From the NCBI GenBank assembly GCA_963705105.1, contig CAVPIW010000006.1:922989-954988 (forward strand): a DNA stretch of 32,000 nucleotides. Direction: 5' to 3'. The stretch comes from an uncultured Nitrospiraceae bacterium (GTDB lineage: Bacteria > Nitrospirota > Thermodesulfovibrionia > Thermodesulfovibrionales > Dissulfurispiraceae). Under the pieces are notes generated by a model, which saw nothing but the letters and a program-made list of their open reading frames with translations, made no database searches and was not told where the DNA came from. Below, in pieces: positions 23,433 to 30,925 of this stretch (positions are counted from its first letter, which is position 1; every line of letters starts with the position of its first letter). Made by a program: the position numbers and the translations under genes.

Positions 23433-23464
23433 AGAAAAAGAAGAGGGGTCTCGACGAGACCCCC
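23433..23464 (-). terminator. intrinsic terminator of the mini-gene
   Basis: The minus strand reads GGGGTCT-CGTCG-AGACCCC followed by TCTTCTTTTTCT. It starts 24 nt after the mini-ORF stop. Confidence 0.75.
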
Positions 23465-23487
23465 GATGTAATCCAAAGCCCCGGTGT

Positions 23488-23550
23488 TTAGCAGGAGCTC
23501 TTGCACTTGCAGGTTGTTGATACCTTCTTTGAAACTTTCCTGATCACCAT
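23488..23550 (-). CDS. 20-aa Lys/Cys-rich small ORF MVIRKVSKKVSTTCKCKSSC (candidate small protein or RiPP precursor)
   Basis: Too short for the ORF track. ATG 23550 has GGAGGTG 12 nt upstream, its own extended -10 promoter, and a terminator right after the TAA at 23488-23490. Confidence 0.4.
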   Translation of the reverse strand: MVIRKVSKKVSTTCKCKSSC

Positions 23551-23605
23551 GTTGACTCTTCACCTCCCCTTCAAAGGGAATACGAAGGCTTCATGCCCCG
23601 CTGAC

Positions 23606-23614
23606 ATTATACCA
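23606..23614 (-). promoter_or_regulatory. extended -10 promoter TGGTATAAT
   Basis: The minus strand reads ...GATTTATGGTATAATGTCAGC..., a perfect TATAAT with an upstream TGn. The -35 position coincides with the edge of MITE copy 6. Confidence 0.5.
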
Positions 23615-23632
23615 TAAATCAGGTTCTTCTTT

Positions 23633-23855
23633 ACCTTATCGCTGCAATACATTCCCGGGAAAGGCGGAGCGAAGATGCCACCGCAAGAGTCATTAAGTCA
23701 TTGAGTCATTAAAGTCATTGTCGGCAGTCGACAGTCGGAACAAGGTCACGAATACCAGGACGGCAGCGTCGATATAAAAACGATTCCTTTCACTGACACT
23801 GACACTCACACTGACACTGTTTTCAGAGTGCTTCGCCCCGCCTTTTCATGCAACG
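23633..23855 (+). repeat. MITE-like element, copy 6
   Basis: Full-length copy. Its right terminal repeat CTTCGCCCCGCCTTTTCATGCAACG ends 8 nt from the radical SAM stop codon (23863-23865). Confidence 0.92.
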
Positions 23856-23862
23856 CCCCGGA

Positions 23863-25038
23863 TCATGCCGGAAAATCCTTGAGCCCGTAAGCGGAGCATT
23901 TGTAAGGATCGCGTCTCCCCTGCCCCAAAGATGTCTCCGCCCTGAAACGGCAGCCCCCACGGCATACATCGATGTGGCCGCAGGAGATGCGCGCACATTC
24001 CAGCTCATCGAGACGGACGGGACTGACCCGGCCCCACGCTGCGCGGAGCCCCCCGCTTACCTTCCCTGCCGGTTTGTCCCCGTAGAAGGCGCATTTGGCG
24101 ACCGTTCCGTCCGCCAGGACCGAGGCGAGATGGAGACCGCAGCCGTAACCTTTACCGCCGCCATGGAGCCCTCCCCCGAATCCATAGGAAAAATAAGGGC
24201 CGGCGATCTCGGGAGGGACCTGGAAGAGCGCGTTTTCAGCGAAGCTTCCCGAGACGCAGGGGACATCGACGGTCCAGTCCCTGATGCCCATGCCCCTGAA
24301 AAGGAGATCCATTCCGTCGAATTCCTCCAGGTTTTCCCGGTGCACCATCGTGGCGACCGAGACGGACATCCCTTCAGAAAGGGCGTCACCGATCCTGTCC
24401 ATCACCTTACCGTATGTCCCCTTCCCCCTCAGGGCCTCGTGGCCGTGCTCCATGCCGTCGACACTGAACTGGATCTCGTCGACGTTGAGCCCCCTGATGA
24501 GGTCCTTCCGGAGCAGGAGACCGTTTGTAAAGAGGACCTTCCTGAAGGCGTAAAACGGCAGATCGTTGTTGAACTCCTGAAAGCTGCTGTGCAGGAGGGG
24601 CTCACCGCCGCTGATGAGGAGCCGCAGCCCCTGCATCTCCTCGAATTCGCGGAGCACGCGACGCAATGAGTCGATGGGGAGTTCTCTGTCCGAAGGCTTT
24701 CCGATGTAACAATGCCTGCACCGGAGGTTGCACTTCGTCGTGATCTGGAGCTCGAGGTACCGCAGGGACGGGACGGGGGATTTCAGCAGAGGCGGTCTCC
24801 TGACGGCAACACGCCTCTCCGTCAGCAGGCCCTCGGAAAGACAGTCGTCGATAAAAGACCGGTCGGCCTGCGAGCCGTCGCACCCTTCGTCGGAGGCGCA
24901 TCCCTGCAGGAAGGAGAAGGCACTGTCGTCGACCTCATAGAGTTCGTCATTCTCAATATCATAGACAGAGGGTTCTTCAAGCCGTTTAAGGGCACATCTG
25001 TCTGAAAGATAGTATCGCACCATGTATTCTACCATCAT
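23863..25038 (-). CDS. radical SAM/SPASM domain protein with N-terminal PqqD/RRE-like extension (peptide-maturase-like)
   Basis: CNLRCRHC (CxxxCxxC) follows a ~95-aa N-terminal region. C-terminal Cys cluster: GCGLHLASVLADGTVAKC, CARISCGHIDVCRGGC and YKC, a SPASM-like pattern. Confidence 0.85.
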   Translation of the reverse strand: MMVEYMVRYYLSDRCALKRLEEPSVYDIENDELYEVDDSAFSFLQGCASDEGCDGSQADRSFIDDCLSEGLLTERRVAVRRPPLLKSPVPSLRYLELQITTKCNLRCRHCYIGKPSDRELPIDSLRRVLREFEEMQGLRLLISGGEPLLHSSFQEFNNDLPFYAFRKVLFTNGLLLRKDLIRGLNVDEIQFSVDGMEHGHEALRGKGTYGKVMDRIGDALSEGMSVSVATMVHRENLEEFDGMDLLFRGMGIRDWTVDVPCVSGSFAENALFQVPPEIAGPYFSYGFGGGLHGGGKGYGCGLHLASVLADGTVAKCAFYGDKPAGKVSGGLRAAWGRVSPVRLDELECARISCGHIDVCRGGCRFRAETSLGQGRRDPYKCSAYGLKDFPA

Positions 25039-25151
25039 CCCTCAGCATCGGGGATCATGGTACAGCGATGCGAAATGCTTGCCCCTTCCGACACCAGGAC
25101 CATGAGGGGGATCGCTTCAGCACTCAAGAAGAGACGGATCGGCGGCCTCAT
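25035..25151 (-). CDS. hypothetical 38-aa upstream ORF overlapping the radical SAM start (ATGA); doubtful
   Basis: MRPPIRLFLSAEAIPLMVLVSEGASISHRCTMIPDAEG. Its stop TGA overlaps the rSAM ATG. There is only a weak SD-like GGTGGA 2 nt before the ATG. The longer track ORF runs into the MITE. Confidence 0.2.
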   Translation of the reverse strand: MRPPIRLFLSAEAIPLMVLVSEGASISHRCTMIPDAEG

Positions 25152-25173
25152 AGTCCACCGGGGCAGCGAGATA

Positions 25174-25391
25174 AACCTTATCGTTGCAATACACTCCCGG
25201 GAAAGGCGGAGCGAAGATGCCACCGCAAGAGTCATTAAGTCATTGAGTCATTAAAGTCATTGTCGGCAGTCGACAGTCGGAACAAGGTCACGAATACCAG
25301 GACGGCCGCGTCGATATAAAAACGATTCCTTTCACTGACACTCACACTGTCACTGTTTTTCAGAGCGCTTTGTCCCGCCTTTGCATGCAAC
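25174..25391 (+). repeat. MITE-like element, copy 7
   Basis: Full-length copy with one hexamer unit fewer than copies 4 and 6. It lies between the rSAM upstream region and the high-GC block. Confidence 0.92.
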
Positions 25392-25536
25392 AGAAAGGTT
25401 AAGAAAGAAACTGTCGGAACCCGGGTATGGGCCGTCCCGTCAAGGCGGCTGTTCATCGCCTGTTCGAGACAGAAACATTTTCCCGTGAGCCCGCCGCCGG
25501 GTCACTGGCAGAGCCGACGGTCGAGACCCCTGCACG

Positions 25537-25986: not shown

Positions 25987-27029
25987 GGTGTCTCCTTCGA
26001 TAGGATCATAGAGGTCGCTGCCGGAGGCGATCTCCGGTCGCGCCAGCGCTCGAGCGCCCACACGGTCGCCCATGCGTAGAACGCGACACCGACGAAGAGG
26101 CTCACGCGCATCGCGGCGCCTTCAAGCACGCTCTTGCCGCTTGCGCTGTCCTCGATCGCCGGACCGAGCAGGATCAGCGCGGTGATCAGGGCGTTGCTCC
26201 AATAGGACGGCGGGTACCGGGTGCGCCGCATGCGGTAGAGCGCCGAGCCCGCCCAGAGCGACGCGGCCATCAACCACAGCACGAGCATCCACAAGCTCGG
26301 CCAAAGCGACAGGCCAAGCCAGACCGCGAGCGCGATCAGCGCTCCCATCAGCGTCGAACCGACCAGCTCACGTCCGGCGGTTCGCGCATCGGTCTCGCCG
26401 GCCTGCTGGCCGAGCGCCACCGTCTTCATGATCGCCGCCAGGTAGAATGACGGGTCCGTCAGCGCGAGCACGAACACCGGCATCACGATCAGCGTGCCGC
26501 GCAGCGCGATCCAGCGCGCCATCGCGGGATCCGGCCGGATCCCTTGCCGTGTGGCCCCCGGCGTCGGCGGGTCAGGAAAGACGGCTGCCGACACTGCGCC
26601 GACGAGCGTGCCGACAAGCACGCCGACCGCGAAGGTCTTGCTGAGTACGCCGACCAGAGCCTGCTCGGATACGCCGGCCACCGGAACCAGCGTGAAAGCC
26701 AGAACCAGGACCGTGGTCAGCGGGTTGCGCCTCAACCGCCCGACGAAGAACAGCGCGAACAGCAGCGCCGCGGTCACGAGCAGGCCGGCGAACGCGAAGT
26801 GCTGGAGCAGGGGGACCATCGTTACGCCGGCAGCGACCATCAGCGACAGCGCGCACGCGACGACCACCGCCTTCAGCAGCGGCAGCGGCGGTCCCGGCTT
26901 GGATAGTACGAGCACCGCGAGGATGCAGACGAGGTACGGAGCCTGCAGCGCCATTCCGTAAGCGACAAACGCCGCCAGGCCTGTGCCGACCGTCAGCCGC
27001 AGCGCCGCCTTGTCGCCCCGGGACATCAT
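25983..27029 (-). CDS. polytopic inner-membrane protein, FUSC/DUF2955-like putative efflux component
   Basis: 348 aa and very hydrophobic, with multiple predicted TM helices. It sits directly after a HlyD-type gene with overlapping stop and start. The family name is tentative (from memory). Confidence 0.75.
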   Translation of the reverse strand: MMSRGDKAALRLTVGTGLAAFVAYGMALQAPYLVCILAVLVLSKPGPPLPLLKAVVVACALSLMVAAGVTMVPLLQHFAFAGLLVTAALLFALFFVGRLRRNPLTTVLVLAFTLVPVAGVSEQALVGVLSKTFAVGVLVGTLVGAVSAAVFPDPPTPGATRQGIRPDPAMARWIALRGTLIVMPVFVLALTDPSFYLAAIMKTVALGQQAGETDARTAGRELVGSTLMGALIALAVWLGLSLWPSLWMLVLWLMAASLWAGSALYRMRRTRYPPSYWSNALITALILLGPAIEDSASGKSVLEGAAMRVSLFVGVAFYAWATVWALERWRDRRSPPAATSMILSKETP

Positions 27030-28195
27030 CAGTACAGGTAGGTGACCCAGCTGACGAACCGCATGTAGAACGCGGCGAGCGCATTCATCAGCGGATGGTC
27101 GCCGGTGTAGACCAGCACGTCGGCCTGGCCTCCGACACGCGCCATCTTCAGCCGCGGGAGTTCGGCGGGGTCGAATTCGACGGCGACCGGGATGCGCTGC
27201 GCCTGGCGCAGCCAGTCGCGGCTGTTCTTCACGACCGGCAGCGTTCCGGGCGGCGAAGTCTGCTCGCCGCCGACGCCGATGCCGATGCTGCGTACGCGAC
27301 CCTTCAGCACTTCGCCCGGCAACACGTCGAGCACGATCGCGACCTCGTCGCCGGGACGGACATTGCCGATGTTGTTCTCGGTCAGGTCGGCGCTGATCCA
27401 GAGGTCCTGCATCGCAACTAGCGTCATGACCGGCGCACCGGGCTGCGCGAACTGCCCCACTTCGGTGCGCAAGTCGGTGACGACGCCGCGCACCGGCGCC
27501 AGCACGCGGGTGTGGCGCAGGTCCAGTTCCGCCTTCTCGACAGCCGTCACCGCGCCGCGCAGCTGCGAGTTCTCGCCGCCGCTGCTCCCGGCCGCCTCCT
27601 GGGCTTGCCGCAGGTCGGCTTGCGCACGGTGCACCTTGCTGCGCGCTTCTTCCCGAGAGGCCTGCGCCATTTCCAGCCGGCGCACCGAGATCGTGCCCGG
27701 ATCTTCCCGGTAGAGACCTTCCAGGCGACCCGCATCGCGCTCGGCGAGGTCGAGGCCGGATTCGGCCACCGCAAGCGAGGCCCGCGCCGCGTCGACGGCC
27801 GCCGCCGACGCTTGGACCGAACTGCGGACCGATTCGAGGTCGGTGCGCGCCCGCTCCAACGCGATGCGATAGGGCTGCGTGTCGATGTCGAACAACCGCT
27901 GGCCGGGCTGCACCTCGTCGTTGTTGCGGATGTGCACCGCCGTGACCTTGCCCGCAACCTCGGCCGCCACGGGCACGACAAAGGCCTGCAGGCGCGCCTG
28001 CGACGTGCTTGGCGTCAGGCGGTCGCCGACGAAATAGAACGTGAGGCTCCCCACGATGAGCGCCGCGATTACGACTGCACCCACACGGGTCCCGCGTCCC
28101 GTCGGCGAACTCTTCGCCGGCTCCGCCGCTGTGGTTGCATCCCCAGCCTGGCCGGCGGCCGGCGGAGCGGACGTTGACGCTGGATCCTGGTTCAT
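27029..28195 (-). CDS. HlyD/EmrA-type membrane fusion (periplasmic adaptor) protein
   Basis: MNQDPAS..., a single TM helix (VGAVVIAALIVGSLTFYFV), a coiled-coil region and beta-barrel motifs (VLAPVRGVVTDL, RPGDEVAIVLD). ATG 28195 overlaps the OMF stop (ATGA). The 651-aa track ORF N-terminal extension is rejected. Confidence 0.88.
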   Translation of the reverse strand: MNQDPASTSAPPAAGQAGDATTAAEPAKSSPTGRGTRVGAVVIAALIVGSLTFYFVGDRLTPSTSQARLQAFVVPVAAEVAGKVTAVHIRNNDEVQPGQRLFDIDTQPYRIALERARTDLESVRSSVQASAAAVDAARASLAVAESGLDLAERDAGRLEGLYREDPGTISVRRLEMAQASREEARSKVHRAQADLRQAQEAAGSSGGENSQLRGAVTAVEKAELDLRHTRVLAPVRGVVTDLRTEVGQFAQPGAPVMTLVAMQDLWISADLTENNIGNVRPGDEVAIVLDVLPGEVLKGRVRSIGIGVGGEQTSPPGTLPVVKNSRDWLRQAQRIPVAVEFDPAELPRLKMARVGGQADVLVYTGDHPLMNALAAFYMRFVSWVTYLY

Positions 28196-29796
28196 CTTGT
28201 CTCCTCCGGCAGCGGTGGAAGGAATTCGGTCGCCGGTGACGGAAGGGGCGCCGTCAGCAGATTTCGCCAGTCGCTGCGCTCGGACATCGCTGCCTGCGTG
28301 GCATCGTCGAGCACGGGCCGCAGCCGGCCAGCCTCCCAGCCGCCCCCCAATGCCTTGTACACGGCGATCAGGTTCTTCGCGACGTTGCCCTCGCTTGTCA
28401 CCAGGCGCTCTTGCTGGTTGAACAGCGCGCGTTGCGAATCGAGCACACGCTGAAAGTCGACCAGCCCCTCGCGATACTGAAGGGTGGCGATGTCCAGCGA
28501 GCGGCGCGCCGCCTTTACCGCCTCGCGCAGGATGTCGACCTGCGCGCGACTGCGTGCGAAGCCCGTGGCGACGTCGTCCAGTTCGCGAGCGGCCCGCAGC
28601 ACCACGTCCTGATACTGCTCGTACAGTTGCTGGAAGCCGGCATCCTGTACAAGCACCTGGTTCGTTAGGCGGCCGTAGTCGAACACGTTCCACACCAGCG
28701 CCGGCCCGAGCACCCAGCCGAGCGTGCTGCCCGTCGAACCGACCGAGGCGGCCGACAGCGCTAACGATCCGGCGAGGGCGATCGAAGGATAGAGCGCCGC
28801 CTCGCTGACGCCGATCTGCGCCGACTGCGCGGCCAGCTGCAATTCGGCCGCGCGCACGTCGGGACGCCGGCGCAGCAGCGCAGCGGGCAGCCCGTCGATC
28901 ACGCTTAGCGGCGCATCGGGAATCTTCGCACGCCCACTGCTCATCTCTGTCAGCGGTCCTGGCGGGCGCGCGAGCAGCACGCACAACGCGTTCTGCGCCT
29001 GGCGCAGGCTGCTTTCCAGCTCCGGAATCGTGGCCAGCGTGCTCAGGTACTGCGACCGCGCCTGCTGCACATCGAGTTCCGAGTCGTTGCCGCTGCGGAA
29101 CAGCCGTTCGGTGATCTCCAGACTCCGTTGCTGGAGGGCGGCGTTATCGTGCGCAAAGTCAAGGTGGCGCTCGATTGTGCGGATTGCCGCGTAGAGACTC
29201 GCCGTCTGCGCTGCCACCAGCACCTGGACGTCATCGTACTGCGCGATGCTGACGAAGTACGCGGCGTCGGCGGATTCGATGCCACGCCTGAACTTTCCCC
29301 AGAAGTCGATCTCCCAGGCGATGTCGAAGGCCACTCCCGCAGACCAGTAAGATTGGCCGCGGTCGTCTTCCGCGCGCCTGAAAACCGCTTCGCGGCTGCT
29401 GCTGCCCTCGCTGCCCACGCGCAGCACCTCGCCCGTCACCTGTTGCAGCTGCGGATACAGTGCACTGCCGGCGATGCCGAGCCTGGCGCGCGCCTCCATG
29501 ATGCGCATGCCGGCGATCAGCACGCCGGGATTCACGCGCTGCGCCTCGCCGACCAGGCGGTCGAGCGCAGGGTCGCCGAACGTGCGCCACCACTCGTCGT
29601 GCGGCACCGGGGCGCGAGGCGGCGCGGCGTCGACGAGCGCACGCCACTCCCCGCCCGGCCAGTCCCGCAACCACGGCACCTGCGGGCGCGCGAAATCAGG
29701 TCCGACCGTTGTGCACGCGCCGAGCGCGAGCGCGGCAGCCAGTGCCATCAGTGACAACAGAGGGCCGCGCATCGCGGCCGTCGCCGAGCGTATCAC
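28192..29796 (-). CDS. efflux outer-membrane factor lipoprotein, NodT family
   Basis: Lipobox ALALGAC followed by TTVGPDFARP, the typical NodT/OprM-family N-terminus. 534 aa. The start could instead be Met9 at 29772. Confidence 0.9.
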   Translation of the reverse strand: MIRSATAAMRGPLLSLMALAAALALGACTTVGPDFARPQVPWLRDWPGGEWRALVDAAPPRAPVPHDEWWRTFGDPALDRLVGEAQRVNPGVLIAGMRIMEARARLGIAGSALYPQLQQVTGEVLRVGSEGSSSREAVFRRAEDDRGQSYWSAGVAFDIAWEIDFWGKFRRGIESADAAYFVSIAQYDDVQVLVAAQTASLYAAIRTIERHLDFAHDNAALQQRSLEITERLFRSGNDSELDVQQARSQYLSTLATIPELESSLRQAQNALCVLLARPPGPLTEMSSGRAKIPDAPLSVIDGLPAALLRRRPDVRAAELQLAAQSAQIGVSEAALYPSIALAGSLALSAASVGSTGSTLGWVLGPALVWNVFDYGRLTNQVLVQDAGFQQLYEQYQDVVLRAARELDDVATGFARSRAQVDILREAVKAARRSLDIATLQYREGLVDFQRVLDSQRALFNQQERLVTSEGNVAKNLIAVYKALGGGWEAGRLRPVLDDATQAAMSERSDWRNLLTAPLPSPATEFLPPLPEETR

Positions 29797-30925
29797 TCGA
29801 GGTGCCCGGCGTCCGCGTTGGCCGGCGGGAGCTTCGCCTCCGATTTTTCTCCGCGACCCAGCTCATGAAGAGCTGGTAGCCCAGCGCCAGCAGCGTCGCG
29901 CCGACGAACATCCCGAGAATGCCCGCAGCCGCCATCCCGCCGAGAGCGCCGAGCAGAATGACCGGCATCGGCGCCTCGACCCCGCGGCCCAGCATCAACG
30001 GCTTGAGGACGTTGTCGGCCATGCCCGAGACGATCAACAGCACAGTGTAAGCGATCGCCTCGAACGTCCCGTAGGTGCCGGTCCACCAGATATAGCCGAT
30101 CGCCGGCAGAGTGACGATGAGCGCCGGCACTTGGGCGATGCCGAGCACCAGGACGATGGCCGCCAGCGCGCCCACCCAAGGCACGCCGGCGATCAGCAGG
30201 CAGACGCCGACGATGATGGCCTGAATGAACGCGACACCGATGACGCCTTGAGCGACCGCGCGGATCGTCGCGGTGACAAGCACGGTATACTCGGCGCCGC
30301 GCTCATCGCCCGCGAAGCGCCTGAAGATCGACTCGCAGCTCCGCGCGCCTGCCTCCCCGAAGGCCATGACGATCCCGGCGATGATCAGCGCGGCGACGAA
30401 CAACAGGAGCCCGGTGCCGATGCTGGCGACAAAGCCGAGCGCAGCCTTGGCGATTTCGCCGAGCTTCGGCTGCATGCTCTGCACCAATCCCGGCAGATCC
30501 GCGTAAGCCTGCGACCAGACGGCGTACACCTTACCGCCGACCACCGGCCATTGAGCCACCGATTCGCGCGGTGCCGGAATCTTGAGCGTGTTGTTCTGCA
30601 CGTCGATGATTAACTGTTGCAAGGAGTCGCCCAGCGAACTCATCAGCAGGGCGGTCGGCACGACGATCACCATGAAGCCGAGGAGCACCAGCAGCGTAGC
30701 CGCCAGCCCCTGCTTGCCGCCGATCTTGCGAGCCAACGCCTGATGCAGCGGATACAACGAAACGGCCAGGATCACCGCCCAGATCATCAGCGTCAGGAAC
30801 GGCGAAAAGACCTTAAAGCACAGGAGGGCCAGGGCGAGGATCAGGCCGGCACGAATCAGGACATCCAGCAAAAGGGATGCTAACCGGTGTTCGAGTTCTT
30901 GATCAAGCTGGGGGGGGGTGTTCAT
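29696..30925 (-). CDS. AI-2E family transporter (PerM/YhhT-like permease)
   Basis: 409 aa, multi-TM, with a typical AI-2E layout (FSPFLTLMIWAVILAVSLYPL..., VPALIVTLPAIGYIW...). SD GGAG lies 7 nt before the ATG. The 3' end overlaps the OMF start by ~100 nt. Confidence 0.85.
   Translation of the reverse strand: MNTPPQLDQELEHRLASLLLDVLIRAGLILALALLCFKVFSPFLTLMIWAVILAVSLYPLHQALARKIGGKQGLAATLLVLLGFMVIVVPTALLMSSLGDSLQQLIIDVQNNTLKIPAPRESVAQWPVVGGKVYAVWSQAYADLPGLVQSMQPKLGEIAKAALGFVASIGTGLLLFVAALIIAGIVMAFGEAGARSCESIFRRFAGDERGAEYTVLVTATIRAVAQGVIGVAFIQAIIVGVCLLIAGVPWVGALAAIVLVLGIAQVPALIVTLPAIGYIWWTGTYGTFEAIAYTVLLIVSGMADNVLKPLMLGRGVEAPMPVILLGALGGMAAAGILGMFVGATLLALGYQLFMSWVAEKNRRRSSRRPTRTPGTSSDTLGDGRDARPSVVTDGTGCRARARRVHNGRT

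Follow-up and report, generated by a model that had tools for sequence, protein, structure and literature searches.

A predicted 20-residue RiPP precursor gene and its radical-SAM/SPASM partner in Nitrospirota

Here we examine a small unit on the minus strand of a 32,000-nucleotide stretch of DNA from an uncultured Nitrospiraceae bacterium (hereafter the window), in which a promoter, a Shine-Dalgarno (SD) sequence, a 20-codon open reading frame (ORF) and an intrinsic terminator follow one another between a gene for a radical S-adenosylmethionine (SAM) enzyme (rSAM) and a gene for a tetratricopeptide repeat (TPR) protein. Sequence comparison confirms this unit as a real gene for a 20-residue Lys/Cys-rich peptide, and it is very probable that the translated peptide gene is coupled to that of the rSAM enzyme. 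Its best explanation, which we consider likely, is a highly expressed gene for the precursor of a peptide that is made by the ribosome and modified after translation (RiPP), with the upstream radical-SAM/SPASM enzyme acting as its maturase.

A conserved 20-codon gene and its coupling to an rSAM gene

A sequence-only reading of the window had proposed an ORF that opens at ATG 23550 and closes with TAA at 23490-23488 (23488-23550, minus strand). Direct reading and codon conservation uphold this ORF, which encodes MVIRKVSKKVSTTCKCKSSC and which cannot be any longer because an in-frame TGA lies 12 nt 5' of the ATG. Within the window alone, the signals of the unit are not statistically special: terminator-like sites number nine across the window compared with 5.4 expected, and a promoter scan requiring both hexamers did not call the extended −10 site TGGTATAAT, which has no recognisable −35. 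Comparison with other genomes must therefore carry the argument.

Two anchors were used for this comparison. First, a scan for homologues of the rSAM enzyme, with one genome taken per species, gave 80 loci (L001-L080), which together with the window make 81 enzyme-first sources; the genome scan confirmed 484 relatives among the candidate stretches. Second, metagenome contigs were searched with a degenerate DNA pattern encoding T-C-K-C-K-x-S-C-stop, which matched at least 120 stretches, 80 of these being analysed as loci. In this peptide-first set the invariance of the core is partly forced by the search pattern; the unforced evidence is that of the enzyme-first set.

In 69 of the 81 enzyme-first sources a 20-codon ORF ending in C-K-C-K-x-x-C-stop is found directly downstream of the rSAM gene and in the same orientation. 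Among the 12 others, three contigs end too early (one of them with a truncated copy) and nine are truly without the ORF; the enzyme-first loci that can be assessed for the pairing number about 77. No two of the 69 genes share a DNA sequence, and together they encode 56 different peptides; each gene is exactly 20 codons long, and TAA, TAG and TGA all serve as stops. Their logo reads M1 [TVKI]2 I3 [KR]4 K5 [VI]6 s7 [KR]8 [KR]9 x10 [AS]11 [TLMVI]12 T13 C14 K15 C16 K17 [SG]18 S19 C20, such that I3, T13, K15, K17 and S19 are invariant without any forcing by the search, and C20 is always the final residue. On the peptide-first side, 75 of the 80 listed stretches clearly belong to the family and have a proper start and SD, and over both sets the number of distinct peptide sequences rises to at least 112. 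We propose that the peptide is divided into a basic leader (residues 1-12) and an invariant core, T13-C14-K15-C16-K17-x-S19-C20.

The comparison of synonymous with non-synonymous change, which the sequence-only reading had named as a means of telling a peptide from a small regulatory RNA (sRNA), came down on the side of the peptide. Over the whole ORF the proportion of synonymous differences (pS) is 0.81 and that of non-synonymous differences (pN) 0.16 (pN/pS 0.19), and over core residues 13-20 the respective values are 0.84 and 0.03 (pN/pS 0.04). Synonymous sites are thus saturated while replacements are nearly absent, and we therefore conclude that the ORF is translated. By the same token, the reading of the unit as an sRNA with an incidental or chance ORF fails, because its synonymous positions change freely while its amino acids are held. 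The fixed length of 20 codons, the use of all three stops and an SD at the correct spacing likewise tell against it, as does the fate of the search for homologous regions with a disrupted frame: an nhmmer profile of the peptide gene detected no degraded or frame-shifted copies in the loci without the peptide.

What could be held in favour of the sRNA is that the ORF is never called by gene callers and is absent from a collection of 15 billion proteins, in which ten peptide variants were looked up exactly and none found. Even in the complete genome of the cultured Dissulfurispira thermophila T55J (AP022873.1) no gene is called at the unit, between two called genes. This genome carries an intact unit (L202, 4195-4257) that encodes MVIRKVSKKGATTCKCKGSC and is furnished with TGATATAAT, the AUGAA hairpin described below, an SD and a terminator. 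The peptide, including a 33-residue extended form, matches no Pfam or NCBIfam family even at E ≤ 10, ribosomal families included, and in the searchable literature, including the paper describing a compendium of 15,000 rSAM-RiPP enzymes, we found nothing on this family.

Coupling to the rSAM gene is also seen when the search starts from the peptide. Among the 69 listed peptide-first loci with enough upstream DNA, the rSAM gene is immediately upstream in 48 and nearby in another arrangement in two, and from either anchor the co-occurrence which the sequence-only reading had suggested looking for is thus the usual case in the flanking DNA. Lone peptide genes make up about a quarter of copies (L084, L087, L105, L107, L109, L120, L132, L136, L137, L140, L144, L148, L152, L158, L160 and L161) and usually retain their own −10 box and SD. 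Where an rSAM gene lacks the peptide, another ORF may stand in its place: one resembling DsrE, named by eye from its translation, in L031-L033, and a methyltransferase-like one in L020 and L045.

Promoter, leader and terminator of the unit

Transcription of the peptide gene would start from its own extended −10 promoter, TGGTATAAT (23606-23614, minus strand), which direct reading and conservation place exactly where the sequence-only reading had seen it, and which in most relatives lies within the final codons of the enzyme gene. Promoter and terminator were counted in 141 and 140 loci, respectively. Counting as a box any site 15-150 nt 5' of the ATG that either agrees with TG[GA]TATAAT in at least 5/6 matches plus the TG or has a perfect hexamer, we find one in 108 of 141 loci (77%), compared with 9.4% of random 135-nt windows drawn from the same loci. 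The modal distance from box to ATG is 60-75 nt, with some at 85-118 nt.

In 56 of the 61 genome loci having the box, it is embedded in the last rSAM codons in one constant phase, as TAT-GGT/GAT-ATA-ATN (Tyr-Gly/Asp-Ile-x; at about 5120-5140 in L001-L080). The Gly codon of the embedded box is GGT every time, compared with 17% of Gly codons in rSAM genes, and its Ile codon is ATA in 51 of 52 cases, compared with a usage of 40%. The chemically radical swap of Gly and Asp is tolerated at the free N of TGNTATAAT. This exchange at the one free position, together with the fixed codon choice, argues for selection on the DNA and not on the protein. The window and one other locus, L081, have a different rSAM C-terminus (…AYGLKDFPA), and there the box falls within a noncoding spacer of 312 nt; it is retained in noncoding DNA at orphan peptide loci as well. 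A promoter lying inside the last codons of the enzyme gene would leave the levels of peptide and enzyme uncoupled.

The leader of about 48 nt that had been read from the window is likewise present, with the SD GGAGGTG at 23561-23567 (minus strand), 10 nt 5' of the ATG, as direct reading and conservation agree. An SD of the GGAGG or GGGGG type precedes the start by 6-10 nt in almost every one of the 69 loci listed, and a very strong SD of this kind would drive translation of the 20 codons. At the other end, the hairpin and T-tract are found at 23433-23464 (minus strand) as GGGGGTCTC-GTC-GAGACCCCT plus a T-rich tail, the terminator scan giving a stem at 23464-23444 of nine pairs, six of them GC, followed by CTTCTTTTTC. 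A hairpin plus T-run no more than 110 nt past the peptide stop is found in 95 of 140 loci (68%), compared with a background of 6% in random windows, and would end an RNA of about 165 nt. Promoter, SD, ORF and terminator are thus each conserved across some 140 loci, and these signals mark the unit, as the sequence-only reading had it, as an independent transcription unit, of sigma-70 type and with an intrinsic terminator.

The 5' untranslated region (5'UTR) of this RNA is predicted to carry two hairpins. The first (23585-23599, minus strand; GGGGC-AUGAA-GCCUU) has an NNGAA-type pentaloop, and in an RNAalifold analysis of 36 UTRs its 6-bp stem shows compensatory changes at all six pairs, the loop being mostly AUGAA. 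The second (23564-23580, minus strand; UUCCCU-UUGAA-GGGGAG) is an anti-SD stem seen both by covariation and in the minimum free energy and centroid folds of the window transcript, in which CCC, CUC or CUU pairs with the first G residues of the SD; 94% of its cells are paired, with double changes from CG to UA in six sequences. Taken together, the two hairpins have 90% of cells paired compared with 27-57% in slid-partner controls, and 41 double-change cells compared with 11.7 ± 2.8 in shuffles, none of 500 of which reaches the observed value. In the DNA 5' of the peptide, NNGAA-loop hairpins show an enrichment of about 40-fold over the remainder of the loci. The first hairpin may act in mRNA stability or as a site of protein binding, and translation may be tuned by the second.

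A transcript of about 165 nt with conserved 5' hairpins is again what might be expected of an sRNA. However, structural covariation is confined to the 5'UTR, and the transcript as a whole, considered as a structured RNA, was rejected on a fold stability of z = −0.53 relative to shuffled sequences. Rfam recognises only tRNA-Gln in the window and, at E ≤ 10 near the locus, two chance snoRNA matches, with none for the unit or its hairpins, at the gathering threshold either. Added to the coding constraint and the lack of degraded copies, this makes an sRNA with an incidental ORF, one of the possibilities raised by the sequence-only reading, a most improbable explanation, and we have rejected it. 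Two further candidates were set aside. A type I toxin or an upstream leader-peptide attenuator does not agree with a hydrophilic, basic peptide, a terminator 3' of the peptide and downstream genes that vary. A second AUGAA-loop hairpin, at 29865 on the plus strand, lies within a GC-rich coding region and was taken as chance.

The partner enzyme and the likely fate of the peptide

The gene immediately upstream (23863-25038, minus strand), already recognised as a radical-SAM gene in the sequence-only reading, encodes an enzyme of 391 residues identified by Pfam, by fold and by its Cys motifs. It matches Radical_SAM (PF04055, E = 6e-18) with C103-N-L-R-C107-R-H-C110, and in 24 homologues the cysteines of this CxxxCxxC motif are all invariant, as are seven C-terminal ones arranged as C300-x10-G311-x4-C316 ... 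C348-x4-C353-x5-C359-x3-C363 ... C381. Its homologues run into the thousands; identity to the best 120 of them is 56-93%, and nearly all of these come from Nitrospirota (of the Thermodesulfovibrionales/Dissulfurispiraceae type). The ORF as listed begins MMVEYMVRYYLS and the homologues begin MRYYLS, so that the true start is probably Met6 (ATG at 25023).

The AF2 model of the full-length protein has a predicted local distance difference test score (pLDDT) of 78. In it an N-terminal domain of about 90 residues, resembling a RiPP recognition element (RRE) over residues ~7-75, has the order beta-beta-beta-alpha-alpha at a pLDDT of ~90, and the SPASM-type C-terminal region has a pLDDT of 29-53. Modelled in isolation (pLDDT 83), the N-terminal domain shows strands at 8-11, 15-19, 23-27 and 32-35 and helices at 38-47 and 60-68, and its top 15 Foldseek matches in the PDB are all RRE-containing: TbiB1 comes first (probability 1.00, TM 0.56-0.58), and lasso B1, ThcOx, LynD/TruD, CteB and SuiB are also matched. 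The homologue alignment reveals an invariant acidic RRE strand, D31-E-L-Y-E-x-D37; the domain also has cysteines (window 24840-24900), C47 and C66 being present in at least 90% of homologues and C53 in the majority. For the full-length model Foldseek ranks SkfB (E = 2e-14), SuiB and CteB highest, with alignments of 374-432 columns, and a profile search of PDB sequences places SkfB first (5e-22), with CteB at 1e-12. NCBIfam matches 67 families, through the rSAM core only. On the strength of motif and fold, and not of hidden Markov model (HMM) matches, to which neither the SPASM nor the RRE assignment can appeal, the protein looks like an RRE-containing radical-SAM/SPASM peptide maturase.

Adjacency and this RRE-like domain favour the suggestion of the sequence-only reading that the peptide is of RiPP type and tied to the rSAM gene, and from this context we infer that it is probably the substrate which the enzyme modifies. 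The basic, beta-strand-prone M-x-I-K-K-V-S-K-K of the leader would dock on the acidic D-E-L-Y-E-x-D strand of the RRE, thus allowing the core T-C-K-C-K-x-S-C to enter the active site. There, a 5'-deoxyadenosyl radical derived from SAM would take a hydrogen from an acceptor residue, and a Cys thiolate kept in place by an auxiliary Fe-S cluster of the SPASM region would form a thioether ring of the sactionine or ranthionine type, possibly up to three of them. RRE-guided, radical-mediated thioether cross-linking within T13-C20 is the chemistry with most in its favour, yet a tentative proposal, to which we give somewhat less than even weight. Of the best structural relatives, SkfB and CteB make thioethers, whereas SuiB joins Lys to Trp through a carbon-carbon bond. 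Our peptide contains three invariant Cys; it lacks aromatic residues, which makes Lys-Trp-type chemistry impossible here. The spacing T13-x-x-C16 and K17-x-x-C20 seems to recall the N-x-x-C motif of NxxcA, and the obligatory C-terminal C20 may leave room for chemistry at its free carboxylate.

All-against-all clustering of neighbouring ORFs over the 80 loci identified no protease, exporter, tailoring enzyme or other third gene that travels with the pair. With neither a protease nor an exporter linked to the pair, and with a core that is frozen throughout the class, a physiological or signalling peptide is the more likely product, rather than a variable bacteriocin.

Several observations weigh against the precursor/maturase interpretation. 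With regard to the peptide, a leader of 12 residues is short. With regard to the enzyme, its C-terminal pattern has C-x4-C where the canonical SPASM (C-x9-15-G-x4-C ... C-x2-C-x5-C-x3-C ... C) has C-x2-C, no Pfam or NCBIfam model, SPASM and PqqD included, matches the isolated N- and C-terminal enzyme domains even at E ≤ 10, and the E-values of the RRE fold matches are weak (best 0.012), if consistent in ranking; nor is the cut-off of any NCBIfam maturase model reached, the best, WgkB, scoring 74 bits where 650 are required (1e-20). Finally, adjacency is strong, not obligatory: 19 of the 69 listed peptide-first contigs have no rSAM in their flanking DNA, in contexts that are mutually unrelated, and the nine rSAM loci truly without the peptide (L018, L020, L029, L031-L033, L045, L052 and L058) amount to ~12% of enzymes.

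Comparison with known systems helps to place the pair. SCIFF (CteA/CteB, Tte1186a/Tte1186; ranthipeptides) similarly combines a small Cys/Lys/Thr/Ser-rich peptide that has a basic N-terminus with a single RRE-rSAM-SPASM enzyme, and CteB is among the best relatives of our enzyme in both sequence and fold. SCIFF is itself a Cys-rich peptide that occurs class-wide and acquires thioethers from an rSAM/SPASM maturase, and for it an antibiotic role has been argued against, and the two systems share their class-wide occurrence, the lack of a dedicated exporter or protease and a degree of invariance too high for a typical bacteriocin (PMC8326336). Unlike SCIFF, however, which has ~45 residues with six Cys and is hosted by Clostridia, the Nitrospirota peptide has 20 residues with three Cys, the last always C-terminal, and its gene lies downstream of the enzyme gene with a promoter embedded in the enzyme coding sequence. 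Moreover, it matches no NCBIfam peptide model, and the 25 best NCBIfam models for the enzyme do not include that of the SCIFF maturase. Membership of the SCIFF/ranthipeptide family was thus set aside, given three Cys in 20 residues and a maturase cut-off that is not reached.

The sactipeptide pair SkfA/SkfB provides the best-scoring solved relative of the enzyme (374 aligned columns), and SkfB, a thioether-forming peptide maturase, likewise joins an N-terminal domain to an rSAM domain. Yet the two are only ~20% identical, and the NCBIfam SkfB model gives 50 bits where its cut-off is 300. SkfB carries a twitch domain, in which there is a single auxiliary cluster, in contrast to the seven-Cys SPASM-type pattern of the window enzyme; the export and immunity genes of the skf operon are missing beside our pair, and the peptides are unrelated.

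NxxcA/NxxcB and the other streptococcal rSAM-modified RiPPs (RaS-RiPPs) resemble the pair in having a short precursor with a small conserved C-terminal motif and one rSAM/SPASM enzyme, and the core could be read as tandem X-x-x-C units (T13..C16, K17..C20) akin to the N-x-x-C beta-thioether motif of NxxcA (PMC8326336). WgkB, the best NCBIfam match mentioned above, is itself a RaS-RiPP enzyme, matched over the core domain only and far from its cut-off. Streptococcal RaS-RiPP systems differ also in being regulated by quorum sensing and accompanied by transporters. The best-supported placement is therefore that of a system which, judged by sequence, would work like the SCIFF/ranthipeptide or sactipeptide systems while apparently being a member of neither, and which fits the broad class of RRE-dependent rSAM/SPASM RiPP pairs.

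A different use of the same kind of enzyme is found in the PqqA/PqqE and MftA/MftC systems, with which the pair shares a very short (20-30 residues) conserved precursor, an RRE-dependent rSAM/SPASM enzyme and a housekeeping-like distribution. This raises the alternative that the peptide is the precursor of a cofactor or metal-binding molecule, on which the rSAM enzyme would carry out the first step and from which generic proteases would release a small Cys/Lys product for core anaerobic metabolism. The extreme conservation of the eight-residue core over at least 112 peptides is typical of cofactor precursors, the class-wide distribution with its 484 confirmed relatives would suit such a role, and the unvarying terminal position of C20 is reminiscent of the C-terminal chemistry of MftA; PqqE and the mycofactocin maturase are moreover among the detectable relatives of the enzyme, and some loci lie amid genes for rubrerythrin, superoxide dismutase (SOD) and 2-oxoacid:ferredoxin oxidoreductase. 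However, the pyrroloquinoline quinone (PQQ) and mycofactocin systems need several accessory genes, whereas in the 80 loci nothing conserved beside the pair encodes an accessory tailoring enzyme, a peptidase or a carrier. The scores also stay far under the cut-offs (PqqE 42.6 bits where 381 are required, MftC 60.6 where 265 are), the redox neighbourhood is present in only 12-28 of the 80 loci, and the core chemistry must differ because the core contains neither Glu/Tyr nor Val-Tyr. We thus regard a cofactor precursor as unlikely; equally unlikely is its more specific form, a class-specific cofactor or a metal- or sulfur-handling molecule belonging to the core anaerobic physiology of Thermodesulfovibrionia, which a single rSAM enzyme would make from the T-C-K-C-K-x-S-C-COOH end and whose supply would be set by a riboregulatory 5'UTR and the hidden promoter.

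It is also necessary to ask whether the peptide might act unmodified, as a tiny basic protein binding metal, nucleic acid or the ribosome, with CxCxxxC as a metal site. Its adjacency to the rSAM gene would then stem from shared regulation, or the peptide would be an accessory subunit of the enzyme. Three invariant Cys in a short span of a strongly basic sequence would suit such a protein, as would its own promoter and terminator and the quarter or so of copies that stand alone in unrelated contexts. This alternative is nevertheless improbable in our view, since the RRE-like domain needs a peptide substrate for which this peptide is the only conserved candidate, the pair is kept while all other neighbours change, and no Pfam or NCBIfam family, ribosomal ones included, is matched; furthermore, T13, K15, K17 and S19 vary no more than the Cys do, a constraint for which a simple metal site gives no need. 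A loose resemblance of the N-terminus to bL36 was dismissed, there being no family match and a different Cys spacing.

Neighbouring genes and the wider family

Downstream of the unit lies the TPR gene (23412-21646), as the sequence-only reading had noted, followed by ispE, tRNA-Gln and prs. The order TPR-ispE-prs is found 3' of the pair in ~24 of the 80 loci, which are close relatives of the window organism, and because it is limited to these the TPR gene was rejected as a partner in the system. The window genes upstream of the rSAM gene were found in none of the related loci. Directly upstream of it, at 25035-25456 (minus strand) and with a 4-nt overlap, are two small ORFs of 66 and 73 residues which have neither a Pfam or NCBIfam match nor a counterpart in the 80 related loci; these may be lineage-specific genes or no genes at all.

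The spacer between the rSAM stop and the peptide ATG (23551-23862, minus strand) is lineage-specific by comparison with L081: it measures 312 nt in these two loci and 15-122 nt in the others. The rSAM enzymes of L081 and the window are 93% identical, and the last ~80 nt of the spacer, with promoter and UTR, are 100% identical, while its middle has diverged. Two repeat arrays lie within it, (CAGTGT)n at 23791-23819 and (AATGACTY)n at 23687-23720, and just past the rSAM stop (~23852-23841) GCATGAAAAGGC looks like what is left of an AUGAA hairpin. An ancestral rSAM-peptide arrangement that was compact thus seems to have been split by an insertion or duplication.

Farther away, positions 26000-30000 form a block of ~69% GC in a window of ~58% GC elsewhere. 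It codes for a DUF2955/FUSC-like protein and an HlyD-type adaptor and, named by eye, for an outer-membrane-factor-like ORF of 534 residues and an AI-2E-type permease-like ORF of 409 residues, and was probably gained by horizontal transfer as an efflux island.

Outside the Dissulfurispiraceae-like loci the surroundings are different again. There, the pair is often flanked by a divergent Cys-rich ORF of ~112 residues (CxPFCxYYKPGKNEELxCxG…CxxCDFxExDCDF; L023 3631-3969 and equivalents, 28 loci), for which Pfam gives no match, and often also by genes for rubrerythrin-like proteins, Fe/Mn SOD, DUF1284 and 2-oxoacid:ferredoxin oxidoreductase (for example L039 5348-5848, L061 5366-5944 and L026 2676-3146). 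A redox or oxidative-stress neighbourhood of the pair is a weak hint.

Taken together, we argue that the unit represents a new family of precursor/maturase pairs, apparently class-wide in sulfate-reducing and related Nitrospirota, which has been invisible so far because its 20-codon gene is never called. Its embedded promoter and covarying 5'UTR make a clean case of overlapping coding and regulatory constraint. If our interpretation is true, a peptide of 20 residues with an eight-residue core would be one of the most compact rSAM substrates, and as such attractive for enzymology and for the engineering of peptide cyclisation. As for SCIFF, a frozen core without export genes speaks for a physiological role and not for an antibiotic one, and the family may thus offer a second, much smaller model for the question of what housekeeping Cys-rich RiPPs do.

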